From positions 10,174-74,173 of the forward strand of contig JASHNV010000146.1 of the NCBI GenBank assembly GCA_030041455.1: a stretch of DNA of 64,000 nucleotides, given 5' to 3'. The DNA is from Spirochaetia bacterium. GTDB taxonomy: Bacteria; Spirochaetota; Spirochaetia; DAHUYW01. Each line of letters begins with the position of its first letter. The stretch's first letter is position 1. Of this stretch, positions 38,843-47,948 are shown in pieces. The notes under the pieces were generated by a model, which saw only the letters and a program-made list of their open reading frames with translations, had not been told where the DNA came from and did not search any database. A program made the position numbers and the translations under genes.

Positions 38843-39202
38843 GTGAAGAGACTCCTCTTCCTCGGCTTCTTCCTCGCGGCCGCCGGGGCGCTGTTCGCCC
38901 AGTCCGCCGGAAGCGCCACGCAAGCGTCGGCCGGGCTCGTCGTCGCAAAGGTGATGGACAACGGGCCGGCAAGCAACGCCGGGATCGCTCCCGGCGACTC
39001 GATCCTTCAGCTCGACGGGCAGCCCGTCGCGACCATGTCGGACGTGCGCGGCATCCTCGCCAAGCATCAGCCCGGCGATTCCATCCCGGCCGTGGTCTTG
39101 CACAACGGGCAGCAGACGACGGTCACCATCGCGCTCGCGGCGAGCAAGTCCGGCCACCCGACCATCGGGGCCTGGTTCAAGCGGCCGACCCCGCAGTCGT
39201 AG
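38843..39202 (+). CDS. Secreted PDZ-domain protein (119 aa)
   Basis: GTG 38843 after GGAGG. Signal peptide MKRLLFLGFFLAAAGALFAQSAG; PDZ core GLVVAKVMDNGPASNAGIAPGDSILQLDGQPV. Confidence 0.65.
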   Translation: MKRLLFLGFFLAAAGALFAQSAGSATQASAGLVVAKVMDNGPASNAGIAPGDSILQLDGQPVATMSDVRGILAKHQPGDSIPAVVLHNGQQTTVTIALAASKSGHPTIGAWFKRPTPQS

Positions 39203-39331
39203 GCGAAAGCTTGCAGGCGGGAGGCGGCCGGAGCGCCGCCACCCGCCATCTCCGCTCTCGCTCCGCGTTTGCCGGTCCGTTTCGCCGCCCGGGCCATGCC
39301 GCCGCTTCCCTCCGACCCTGGCCGGTAAAAA

Positions 39332-39361
39332 TTGCAGGTATCCCCCCCGACATGGTACAAT
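39332..39361 (+). promoter_or_regulatory. Putative promoter with extended -10 (TTGCAG-18-TGgTACAAT) for the kinase/regulator operon
   Basis: attgcaggtatcccccccgacatggtacaatgg; -10 TACAAT at 39356-39361 preceded by TG. About 95 nt upstream of the kinase GTG. Confidence 0.35.
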
Positions 39362-39456
39362 GGCTCGCCTGAGCCCGTTTCCCCCACGCGGCGTCAGCCT
39401 CGCGGCAGGGGGCAAGGAAAGGCATTTTCCACTGCTTAAGCGGGGGATTCTTTCCG

Positions 39457-45698: not shown

Positions 45699-45721
45699 GC
45701 CGACTGACACAAGGAGAGCAC

Positions 45722-46729
45722 ATGAGCTCAGCACATGAAGCGCCGCTGTCCCGCCGCGCCGAGCGAAGCCCGTTCTTCCGATGGGCCCGCACCTACCCGC
45801 TGCAGATCGGCATCGTCATGGTCGCCGTCGTAATCTGGGTGTTGTTCCTCATCGGCTCGCCTCGGACCTTCCTCTCGGGCGACATCTACGTCTCGTTCAT
45901 GACCACCACTCCCTACTTCGCGCTGATCGCGATCCCGCTCACGCTCGTGGTCATAACCGGGGAGATCGATCTGTCCTTCCCGTCCGTGATGGCGTTCGGA
46001 ATGACCGCCTTCGACGTCATCTTCACGTGGACGGGAAGCTACTGGCTCGGCTTCCTCGCCTGTCTCGTCGCCGGTCTCCTCGCCGGCTACCTGAACGGCG
46101 TCCTCGTGGTGAGGGTGGGCGTCCCGTCGCTCGTCGCGACCATCGGGACCCAGTTCCTGTGGCGCGGGGTCGTCATGGTGATCACGAACGGCCAGGGACT
46201 CGGCATGACGGCCCTCGAGCCGACAGGGCTCCACGCCGTCCTCGTCGGGAAGCTCGCGGGGTTTTTCCCGATGCAGTTCGTCTGGACGATCTTGGTCGCC
46301 CTGGTCATGTGGTTCTTTCTCAATCGTCACCGTTTCGGCGCCCACGTCTACCTGACCGGGGACAACATCGAGAGCGCGCGGCTCATGGGCGTCAACGTGG
46401 GCCTCACGAAGACGCTGACCTTTGCCGTCGCGGGCCTCCTTTCCGCTTTCGCCGGCTTCGTGGTGAGCGTCGGCCTCCTCTTTTTCTGGCCGACCATGGG
46501 CGACGGCTACCTGCTGAACACCCTGGCGTCGGTGTTCCTCGGCGGGACGTCGGTGTTCGGCGGAACCGGGACGATCTTCGGAACCGTGGTGGCGTCGTTC
46601 ATCATCGGCGCCATCAACGCGGGAATCGTGGCGGCCGGATTGACGTCCTTCTGGACGCAGCTCATCTACGGGCTGATCATCGTCCTCTCGGTGTCGATTC
46701 AGACTCTGCTCGCCAAGCGGCTCACGTAG
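45722..46729 (+). CDS. ABC sugar permease (RbsC/AraH-like, about 9 TMS)
   Basis: ATG 45722 after AAGGAGAG. Hydrophobic with the conserved ...TGDNIESARLMGVNV... loop. Confidence 0.8.
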   Translation: MSSAHEAPLSRRAERSPFFRWARTYPLQIGIVMVAVVIWVLFLIGSPRTFLSGDIYVSFMTTTPYFALIAIPLTLVVITGEIDLSFPSVMAFGMTAFDVIFTWTGSYWLGFLACLVAGLLAGYLNGVLVVRVGVPSLVATIGTQFLWRGVVMVITNGQGLGMTALEPTGLHAVLVGKLAGFFPMQFVWTILVALVMWFFLNRHRFGAHVYLTGDNIESARLMGVNVGLTKTLTFAVAGLLSAFAGFVVSVGLLFFWPTMGDGYLLNTLASVFLGGTSVFGGTGTIFGTVVASFIIGAINAGIVAAGLTSFWTQLIYGLIIVLSVSIQTLLAKRLT

Positions 46730-46796
46730 GCGGCGGAGGGACTTCGAAGCCGGTTCGCTTGCATTCTTGAAGTCGGTCAACTACACTTTGGGTGAG

Positions 46797-47948
46797 ATGG
46801 TCGAAAGGCATTCCGCTCCGCCGCCGCGAAGGGAGGACGTCCTGAGCTCCGCTCCGAGCAAGGTCCTCGCCGGCATCGCGCACGAGCTTCGCACGCCGGT
46901 GAGCGGCATCTCCGGGATGGTCGCGCTCCTCGAAAAGACCGGGCTCACGGTCGAGCAGCGCCGCTACGTCGACCTCGTCGCCGCGTCGGCGGCCTCGCTC
47001 AGACATCTCGTGGATCAGCTCCTCGACTTCGCCGGGCTTCGCGAGGGCTCCTCCGCCCCCGTTCGGGAGCCCTTCGAGCTCAAGGCGGCGATCGAGGGCG
47101 CGGTCGCCCTTCTCGTGCCGGAGGCCGCGGAGAAGGGTCTCTCGCTCACAGTCGCCGTGGAGAGCGGGCTCGACGTCTGGGTGGCGGGGGATCCCTTCGG
47201 CCTGAGGCAGATCGTTTCCAACCTCGTGGTGAACGCGGTCAAGTTTACCGAGCGCGGCGGAATCGGGGTCGCGGCCCGACTCGACGGACGGAGCGGGGAG
47301 TCGATACTCGTCGAGCTCGCGGTGACCGACAGCGGAATCGGCATACCGGCCGAGAAGCTCGGCCCGATCTTTGACGGCTTCACGCAGCTGGAAGCCGGGG
47401 CGCGCAATCCGCGCAGGGGCCTCGGGCTCGGGCTCTCGATCGTGCATGAGGTCGCGTCGAGAATGGGCGGCCTCGTGGAGGTCGACAGCGCCGTGGGGAG
47501 GGGAAGCACGTTCACCGTCCAGCTTCCCTTTCGACTCCATCCCGGCCGGAAGGCTCAGGCGTCCGGGGGCTCGATTCTCATTGCCGAAGACGAAGCGGTC
47601 AATCGGATGTACATCGATGCCCTCCTCGCGCGAAACGGCTATCGTACCACCATCGTCTCAAGCGGCGTCGAGGCCGTGGAGGCCTTCGGCGAGGGGCGCT
47701 ACGATCTGATCCTGATGGACCTTGCGATGCCGGAGGTGGGCGGCGCCGAAGCCGCGCGCGCGATTCGCGAGCGCGAGCTCGTGCGCGGCGGCCACGTCCC
47801 CATCATCGCCCTCACGGCGTACGTTCATCGGGAGGAGATCGACCGCTGCTTGGGCGCCGGAATGGACGCGTGGATGACGAAGCCCTTCGCCGAGGACGAG
47901 CTTCTCGAGAGGATAGAAGCCCTTCTTGATCGGCGTCCCTGCGGATGA
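46797..47948 (+). CDS. Cytoplasmic hybrid histidine kinase (HisKA + HATPase_c + REC), no sensor/TM domain
   Basis: H-box IAHELRTPVSGI, G-boxes (DSGIGI, GLGLGLSIV), C-terminal receiver (ILIAEDE...LILMDLAMP...TKP). ATG 46797 chosen over TTG 46767; low confidence. Confidence 0.7.
   Translation: MVERHSAPPPRREDVLSSAPSKVLAGIAHELRTPVSGISGMVALLEKTGLTVEQRRYVDLVAASAASLRHLVDQLLDFAGLREGSSAPVREPFELKAAIEGAVALLVPEAAEKGLSLTVAVESGLDVWVAGDPFGLRQIVSNLVVNAVKFTERGGIGVAARLDGRSGESILVELAVTDSGIGIPAEKLGPIFDGFTQLEAGARNPRRGLGLGLSIVHEVASRMGGLVEVDSAVGRGSTFTVQLPFRLHPGRKAQASGGSILIAEDEAVNRMYIDALLARNGYRTTIVSSGVEAVEAFGEGRYDLILMDLAMPEVGGAEAARAIRERELVRGGHVPIIALTAYVHREEIDRCLGAGMDAWMTKPFAEDELLERIEALLDRRPCG

Follow-up and report, generated by a model that had tools for sequence, protein, structure and literature searches.

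The window analysed here, a 64-kb stretch of contig JASHNV010000146.1 from a Spirochaetia bacterium, carries six genes on the + strand that together specify a two-component regulatory system, two different periplasmic sugar-binding proteins (PBPa and PBPb) and an ATP-binding cassette (ABC) importer, and that we refer to as the cassette. Genes were called from an open reading frame (ORF) listing and Pfam matches, which bore out every placement and identity given in a first-pass annotation of the locus. The first gene (39457-41208, +) encodes a sensor histidine kinase (HK) with a first transmembrane segment (TM1), a periplasmic domain, a second segment (TM2) and HAMP, HisKA and HATPase_c domains. 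Its stop codon is overlapped through an ATGA by the start of the second gene (41205-42506, +), an arrangement indicative of translational coupling. The second product contains Response_reg (1.2e-27), Sigma54_activat (1.6e-65) and HTH_8 (6e-14) domains, and its translation shows the GAFTGA loop and the Walker A motif GESGTGKE, which place it among the NtrC-family sigma54 enhancer-binding regulators; its best NCBIfam match is AtoC-like, below cutoff, and none of the cassette proteins scanned reaches a curated NCBIfam cutoff. Then come PBPa (42704-43705, +), a Peripla_BP_4 protein with a signal peptidase I-type signal peptide, and PBPb (43786-44811, +), also a Peripla_BP_4 protein and in the window a lipoprotein with a LAGC lipobox, followed by the ABC ATPase (44931-45698, +) and a BPD_transp_2 permease (45695-46729, +) of the CUT2 type. 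By Pfam, a type I Peripla_BP protein, a BPD_transp_2 permease and an ABC ATPase together identify a CUT2 (ribose-type) importer. The fused two-domain ATPase of about 500 residues typical of the CUT2 proteins RbsA, XylG and AraG is not found here: the window ATPase has 255 residues and one ABC_tran domain, aligns only to the N-terminal half of the XylG, YtfR, RbsA and AraG models of NCBIfam, and is kept in this single-domain form in all cassettes.

When 185,579 species-representative genomes were searched with aligned PBPa homologues, 80 loci emerged, which tblastn with ten window proteins divided into two classes. Class A comprises the loci with HK, NtrC-type activator, PBPa, PBPb, ABC ATPase and permease in the order of the window (28, plus two truncated ones, nearly all from Spirochaetota), and class B those with PBPa and no kinase (50, from Rectinemataceae, Myxococcota, Planctomycetota, Cryosericota and others). 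ORF clustering of the class A loci finds these six families kept together, with identities to the window proteins of 62-72% for HK, 68-76% for the activator, 65-73% for PBPa, 71-86% for PBPb, 75-84% for the ATPase and 63-75% for the permease, while the flanks vary from genome to genome, each flanking family recurring in at most seven class A loci. The window gene order is also seen, at 23-64% identity, in three more distant loci (L049, L051 and L066). The earlier view of kinase, activator, sigma54 promoter, two binding proteins and importer as one unit is thus upheld by six-gene synteny in 28 genome loci. Since this set is anchored on PBPa, and hence biased, the test was repeated from the kinase sensor domain in Joint Genome Institute (JGI) metagenomes. 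PBPa follows the activator in 17 of the 18 kinase-anchored contigs that are long enough, and wherever a contig extends further (eight of eight) PBPb, the ATPase and the permease come next; in none of the loci does the activator directly precede PBPb. The exception among the 18, L120 (8001-11702), has no PBPa after its activator; 73 nt downstream, where the contig ends, lies a second sigma54 activator gene, 39% identical and in convergent orientation. PBPa orthologues therefore do stand beside sensor kinases in other genomes, the observation by which the first-pass annotation had proposed to judge its idea of PBPa as a co-sensor, and a PBPa-type gene is linked to the kinase and regulator pair in the remote loci L088, L092, L093, L078 and L079 as well.

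The -24/-12 promoter TGGCGTGTTTCTTGCT (42652-42667, +) lies in the 240-bp gap 3' of the activator gene and no other match to TGGC-N7-TTGCW exists on the two strands of the window, where 0.23 would be expected by chance. A TGG-N9-TGC element occurs in the spacer between activator and PBPa in all 28 class A genome loci, mostly about 140-165 nt past the activator stop codon, with the family consensus TGGCCCGATTCNTGCA; a stricter pattern (T[TG]GC at -12) had almost no matches in the relatives, and the relaxed one recovered all loci. The promoter, described earlier as well formed, is accordingly unique in the window, on the correct strand and conserved. Enhancer repeats for the activator had been expected within 42507-42650, and a putative upstream activating sequence (UAS), CTACTCG-ATTT-TTACTCAAATTGGGAA, is found at 42536-42561 (+), about 105-115 nt upstream of the -24 element; it consists of one direct half-site and a dyad spaced by about one helical turn (10-11 bp), and is the sole good match in the 64 kb. 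The family consensus is TTACCCA-N4-TTACCCAAnTTGGGTAA, a dyad accompanied by at least one additional direct half-site. Almost every locus with the kinase and activator has it, the remote L078, L079, L088, L092 and L093 included, at a distance of 104-150 nt (mostly 116-124 nt) before the -24 TGG. Where remote kinase relatives adjoin an operon of PBPa, permease and double ATPase, divergently in L078 and L079 and collinearly in L092 and L093, the UAS and the promoter precede PBPa, at identities of 27-33% in the kinase sensor domain and about 50% in the activator. Upstream of PBPa in the class B loci we found no UAS and no TGG-N9-TGC at a plausible distance, the matches in L065 and L067 falling right at the estimated start codon. 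Because the two elements are kept with the kinase and are not found in class B, a wiring that runs from kinase and activator through the enhancer and the sigma54 promoter to a PBPa-led operon is well supported, and the two-component system very probably acts on the operon by this route. In L066 the spacer between PBPa and PBPb is 326 nt long (10898-11223) and contains both a perfect sigma54 promoter, TGGCACTTTAGTTGCA, and another copy of the enhancer-like repeat (TTACTCA...TTACTCATTATGGGTAA), so that in that genome PBPa and the importer would form separate sigma54 units.

The two halves of the cassette also occur apart. PBPb, the single-domain ATPase and the permease are found with neither the kinase nor PBPa, at 74-86% identity, in five different contexts, which include Anaeromyxobacter (L082/L083), Rectinemataceae (L084-L087), L097 and L098. 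The Anaeromyxobacter genes (8001-10861) are 76-86% identical at the protein level to the window genes (43786-46729), as close as those of other spirochaetes, and this suggests a recent transfer of the three-gene PBPb importer between phyla. Being complete on its own in other genomes, the importer has in PBPb its predicted cognate binding protein, in keeping with the first-pass suggestion that the second binding protein serves transport. The class B orthologues of PBPa, for their part, are 49-67% identical and head operons of PBPa, a permease and a fused two-domain ATPase, and the permeases of these operons are 28-30% identical to that of the window. From this distribution, class A looks like a regulatory unit with PBPa that was joined to a mobile PBPb importer, the permease and ATPase of PBPa being lost. 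In class A, at any rate, one binding protein has no permease or ATPase of its own and a separate one is there for transport.

Divergence within the family draws the boundary at the same place. In pairwise distances from 19 non-redundant cassettes, the matrices of the HK sensor, the HK core, the activator and PBPa correlate with one another at r = 0.89-0.96 (PBPa against kinase and activator, 0.90-0.94), whereas any of these four against PBPb, ATPase or permease gives 0.38-0.66, the range found for PBPa as well; within the transporter block r is 0.40-0.75. The matrices support a boundary between PBPa and PBPb and a shared history of PBPa with the regulators, which falls short of proof of contact. 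Between the two binding-protein genes lies an intercistronic hairpin, TTGCCCCGTGTAGGGCAA (43738-43755, +), a variant with a 6-bp stem of a conserved family hairpin. The form seen in relatives, AGCCCC-GUU-GGGGCU, is strand-specific and occupies the corresponding position in at least 22 of 29 loci (for example, L015:10878-10902 and L002:10908-10932); the loop is GUU in 22 of 23 aligned loci and GUC in L020, and the stem covaries, six of eight pairs having changed on both sides, with a score reached by none of 500 shuffles. Partial termination, processing of the transcript and stabilisation of the mRNA are possible functions. A strong GC-rich hairpin of 10 or more bp follows right after the PBPb stop codon (44821-44852), within the 119 nt that separate PBPb from the ATPase gene. 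It is often at this position that ABC operons fix how much binding protein is made relative to the membrane components. Rfam and tRNA scans of the whole window gave no match.

Our best reading of the locus, to which we assign a probability of about 0.5, is that of a sigma54-dependent, probably L-arabinose-responsive, three-component sensing and uptake cassette in which PBPa is a co-sensor of the kinase. The signal would be L-arabinose or a closely related plant-derived sugar; PBPa loaded with it would dock on the periplasmic domain of HK and switch the kinase on; HK would then phosphorylate the NtrC-type activator, which would bind the TTACYCA repeat and dyad at 42536-42561 and open the sigma54 promoter (42652-42667) at the expense of ATP. 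Transcription of PBPa and of the PBPb-ATPase-permease importer would follow, and PBPb would hand the sugar to the importer. With PBPa inside the operon that is induced, such a circuit would feed back positively on itself, and other co-sensor binding proteins, namely BctC, GltB and CBP, are likewise encoded in the operon they help to induce (PMC8050422). Of the elements of this reading, the comparison of genomes shows gene content, synteny, the conserved promoter and enhancer, the distinct evolutionary origins of the cassette's two parts and the proximity of ara genes to orthologues of PBPa (see below). The ligand, the contact of PBPa with the kinase and the direction of control, on the other hand, we infer.

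The sensor domain of HK has about 250 residues (roughly 30-281) and is predicted to be tandem-PAS or dCache-like. This segment matches no Pfam family at E<=10, the LuxQ-periplasm family PF09308 included. A word-indexed protein search with it gave mostly frameshifted fragments, and the size of the family was therefore taken from an exhaustive HMMER search of 1.84 billion cluster representatives, which found 28 relatives; by these searches the domain is a predicted periplasmic family outside the described ones. Its AlphaFold2 model (mean pLDDT, the predicted local distance difference test score, 84) begins with a long bundle of helices at the N-terminus and continues with two PAS-like alpha/beta modules, and the best structural match of the model is LuxQ, a kinase that reads a Peripla_BP_4 protein. 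Domains of the dCache type that bind their ligands directly score nearly as well. This would suit the main rival scheme, in which the dCache-like domain binds the sugar itself, the control is plainly two-component, and PBPa and PBPb both feed the same permease, PBPa taking no part in signalling; the two binding proteins might then serve, for instance, different sugars or different ring forms of one sugar. It is documented that the pyranose and the furanose of a single sugar can each have a transporter of their own (PMC10191376). The wider kinase family agrees with such a scheme in part. Some remote relatives of the sensor domain belong to a class A cassette (L088) or adjoin operons of PBPa, permease and double ATPase (L092 and L093). 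The most remote, in L090 (6334-11442) and L091, with 24-26% identity and an activator 52% identical, has no PBPa nearby and stands beside a divergent CUT1 operon of an SBP_bac_1 protein and two BPD_transp_1 permeases, from which it follows that the kinase family is not tied exclusively to PBPa-type proteins. The alignment of the sensor-domain family contains no motif specific to PBPa partners, the remote CUT1-linked member keeping the same few conserved positions.

PBPa itself can also be read either way. Its gene opens the induced operon, its orthologues are genuine parts of transporters, and in sequence the protein is most like binding proteins that serve transport: the closest solved relatives are 5hqj, the TM0114-type 2h3h and 6sw4, the last deposited as 'Arabinose binding protein' and matched at E 2e-39, and the sensor protein XylFII (5xsj) is a more distant relative (E 9e-28). 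An assignment of 6sw4 as the structure of Shewanella GafA was ruled out, the GafA paper giving 5OCP. All this would suit a second binding protein shared by one importer. Against such sharing, however, PBPa and PBPb are only about 25% identical, the window permease is only distantly related to the native partner of PBPa (at the 28-30% given above), the divergence of PBPa tracks that of the regulators and not that of the permease, PBPa is never lost from the cassette, and the PBPb genes are equally conserved with or without PBPa, and so give no hint of having adapted to an additional binding protein. On balance we regard plain two-component control with a shared permease as credible but less likely than not. 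Neither the sensor-domain motifs nor lipidation discriminates between a co-sensor and a shared importer; the first-pass description of one lipidated and one non-lipidated binding protein holds in the window but not across the family, and lipidation, which varies within both proteins and both classes, was dropped as a functional discriminator. A co-sensor role for PBPa, as first proposed, is therefore plausible at somewhat less than even odds: an importer that is complete without PBPa, the loss of the latter's own permease and ATPase, the co-divergence with the regulators and the LuxQ-like fold all favour it circumstantially, and the contact with the kinase remains a proposal. More tentatively still, PBPa may be a former arabinose transport protein that was kept solely as the ligand-reading subunit of a LuxQ-like sensor-domain family not described before, after its transporter had been replaced by the mobile PBPb genes.

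The start of PBPa in the window raises a different doubt. From the in-frame stop at 42668 to a GTG at 42746 there is no ATG, GTG or TTG ahead of the signal peptide, and the codon aligned with the start of the relatives is ACG (42704), where the closest relatives have TTG or ATG. The public annotation begins the protein at GTG 42746, the first canonical start, with which the signal peptide would be removed. The ACG region is identical in two metagenome-assembled genomes from NCBI and in one Logan assembly (L094-L096), so that a one-off assembly error does not account for it. Taken together, these observations could mean that PBPa is decaying in the source genome, its start mutated and the protein no longer exported, in which case only the kinase, the activator and the PBPb importer would function there. 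Yet apart from its start the reading frame is intact and no less conserved than in the relatives, a strong Shine-Dalgarno sequence, GGAGGGGAGG, lies 8 nt before the ACG, and initiation at ACG at a low level is plausible given that the closest relatives already rely on a weak TTG; moreover, the four assemblies may stem from related samples. We consider decay of PBPa improbable.

As to the sugar, several members of the system are found next to arabinose genes in other genomes. Within 10 kb of 24 of the 50 class B PBPa operons there is araA, araB (FGGY) or araD (class II aldolase), often with a regulator of the LacI family; the PBPb genes of Anaeromyxobacter (L082/L083) directly follow lacI-araA-araD; and in L089 a remote homologue of the kinase adjoins araD-araA-araR-lacI-araB. 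The ara linkage of relatives of PBPa, PBPb and the kinase, together with the likeness of PBPa to 6sw4, makes L-arabinose or a close relative the best guess, and we lean slightly towards L-arabinose as the signal and substrate. Three results weigh against it: none of the class A cassettes has ara genes beside it, four of the five stand-alone PBPb contexts have none either, and no protein reaches an NCBIfam equivalog cutoff. The window also has a separate arabinose-type cluster, 30 kb upstream of the cassette (1697-12876), with a melibiase-like glycosidase, araA (4486-6018, -), two CUT1 permeases and an SBP_bac_1 protein (5966-9168, -), an FGGY kinase (9928-11616, -) and an AraR-like regulator of GntR-Peripla_BP type (11779-12876, +).

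Two further genes on the + strand adjoin the cassette, and the first-pass annotation had counted both in. Upstream lies a secreted protein of 119 residues with a signal peptide and a PDZ_2 domain (38843-39202, +), taken to be a partner of the system; downstream is a hybrid HisKA-HATPase-REC kinase (46767-47948, +), soluble in that it has no transmembrane segment, for which a role as phosphate sink or branch point had been put forward. A larger module of this kind, with the PDZ protein as an envelope partner, would fit the adjacency and common direction of the genes and also the 37-nt gap between permease and hybrid kinase, in which no terminator-like site was found (the hits of the sigma70 and terminator scan were no commoner than in shuffled sequence), so that read-through may occur in the source genome and the hybrid kinase is possibly co-transcribed with the cassette there. 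However, neither gene is present in the 28 related genome loci or in the metagenome loci, where flanks differ by genome, and the matches of the hybrid kinase in other loci are the cassette's own HK and activator or unrelated genes (26-28% identity). Being absent from every related locus, the two are best seen as neighbours in the source genome only, outside the conserved unit, and we hold the larger module to be very unlikely. A Gfo/Idh/MocA oxidoreductase gene and an upstream GAF-HD-GYP gene likewise have no class A counterpart, even at relaxed thresholds, and all four were dropped as module members for want of conservation. The roughly 550 bp between the hybrid kinase and the Gfo/Idh/MocA gene (47949-48501; likely start GTG 48502) hold no convincing ORF, Rfam match or terminator call. 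Genes for cyclic di-GMP turnover lie on both sides of the cassette, a GAF-HD-GYP phosphodiesterase (37260-38540, -) and a GAF-GGDEF cyclase (51108-52169, -), neither of which is kept beside it in other genomes. A glycan-related cluster at 54697-63070, with a PIG-L deacetylase, GT4 glycosyltransferases, an invertase/GDE-like protein and a GH130 mannoside phosphorylase-like protein, appears unrelated to the cassette.

Parts of this arrangement have precedents. To call it not a textbook arrangement, as the first-pass annotation did, was an overstatement, kinases with a sensor binding protein and a separate transport binding protein having been described (PMC10384115, PMC11847368, PMC8050422). In Clostridium beijerinckii XylFII-LytS-YesN controls xylFGH, and in Ruminiclostridium cellulolyticum CuaD-CuaSR controls cuaABC (PMC8050422, PMC10384115, PMC11847368); in both, a dedicated sensor binding protein exists beside the transport one, XylFII beside XylF and CuaD beside CuaA (PMC10384115, PMC11847368). 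The cassette resembles these systems in that a transporter-less Peripla_BP-type protein adjoins a kinase and regulator pair, and in that the neighbouring ABC importer, which the system induces or, in our case, is predicted to induce, works with another binding protein of the same sugar class. It differs from them in several ways: their regulators are of the AraC/YesN type and their promoters sigma70-dependent, in place of an NtrC-type activator and sigma54; the sensor of LytS is helical (TarH-like), whereas that of HK is a predicted tandem-PAS domain; the gene of their sensor binding protein is grouped with the kinase genes, that of PBPa placed downstream of the induced promoter; and they belong to Firmicutes, whereas the cassette is found in Spirochaetota and the interaction of PBPa with the kinase is there a prediction.

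At the level of the sensor-domain fold the cassette is closest to LuxP-LuxQ (-LuxU-LuxO), the autoinducer-2 (AI-2) pathway of Vibrio, in which LuxO, downstream of LuxQ, is also a sigma54 activator. By sequence, however, the cassette sensor lies outside the LuxQ-periplasm family; LuxQ is a hybrid kinase that acts through a phosphorelay, whereas HK is directly paired with its activator; and the ligand of LuxP-LuxQ is AI-2, in contrast to the predicted sugar and the transporter operon of the cassette. ChvE-VirA of Agrobacterium, where an arabinose/galactose-binding Peripla_BP_4 protein that is also an ABC-transporter partner activates a dCache-like kinase (PMC8050422), shares with the cassette the pairing of a Peripla_BP_4 protein with a kinase whose periplasmic domain is dCache-like. 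ChvE is not among the best 60 of the 79 PDB matches for PBPa, and the output of ChvE-VirA, the OmpR-type VirG and virulence genes without sigma54, is unlike that of the cassette. In AraPST/araEGH of Geobacillus stearothermophilus (Shulami et al. 2011, J Bacteriol), a sugar-binding lipoprotein, a kinase and a regulator reportedly sense extracellular L-arabinose; the system is said to induce a CUT2 arabinose importer with its own binding protein, in a Firmicute and through a regulator that does not depend on sigma54. By this description, AraPST would share the predicted sugar and the logic of the cassette. An NtrC-type sigma54 activator is found, on the other hand, in AioR. The arsenite system to which it belongs, AioX-AioS-AioR, is again a three-component system of binding protein, kinase and regulator (PMC8050422). 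Here the binding protein, AioX, is of the phosphonate type and binds As(III), the AioS sensor is sCache-like and the target is an oxidase, whereas the target of the cassette is a transporter. What distinguishes the cassette among these systems is the combination of a paired NtrC-type activator and sigma54 promoter, a sensor domain not described before, a PBPa gene inside the induced operon and a single-domain ATPase.

The model proposed for the cassette does not overturn current understanding. If it is correct, binding-protein-assisted sugar sensing, characterised mainly in Firmicutes and with AraC-type regulators, would extend to Spirochaetota and to sigma54, and the cassette would be the first three-component system for sugars to be coupled to sigma54, as well as a case in which the conversion of a transport protein into a receptor can be dated. 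It would also define a new family of periplasmic sensor domains together with its DNA target, the enhancer motif and the promoter. The occurrence of the same kinase, activator and enhancer with either the native or a swapped-in transporter would amount to a natural experiment on the origin of receptors from transport proteins. For the uncultured spirochaetes of peat and soil that take part in the turnover of plant polymers, finally, the model would predict the regulator, the operator, the promoter and the inducer of pentose uptake.

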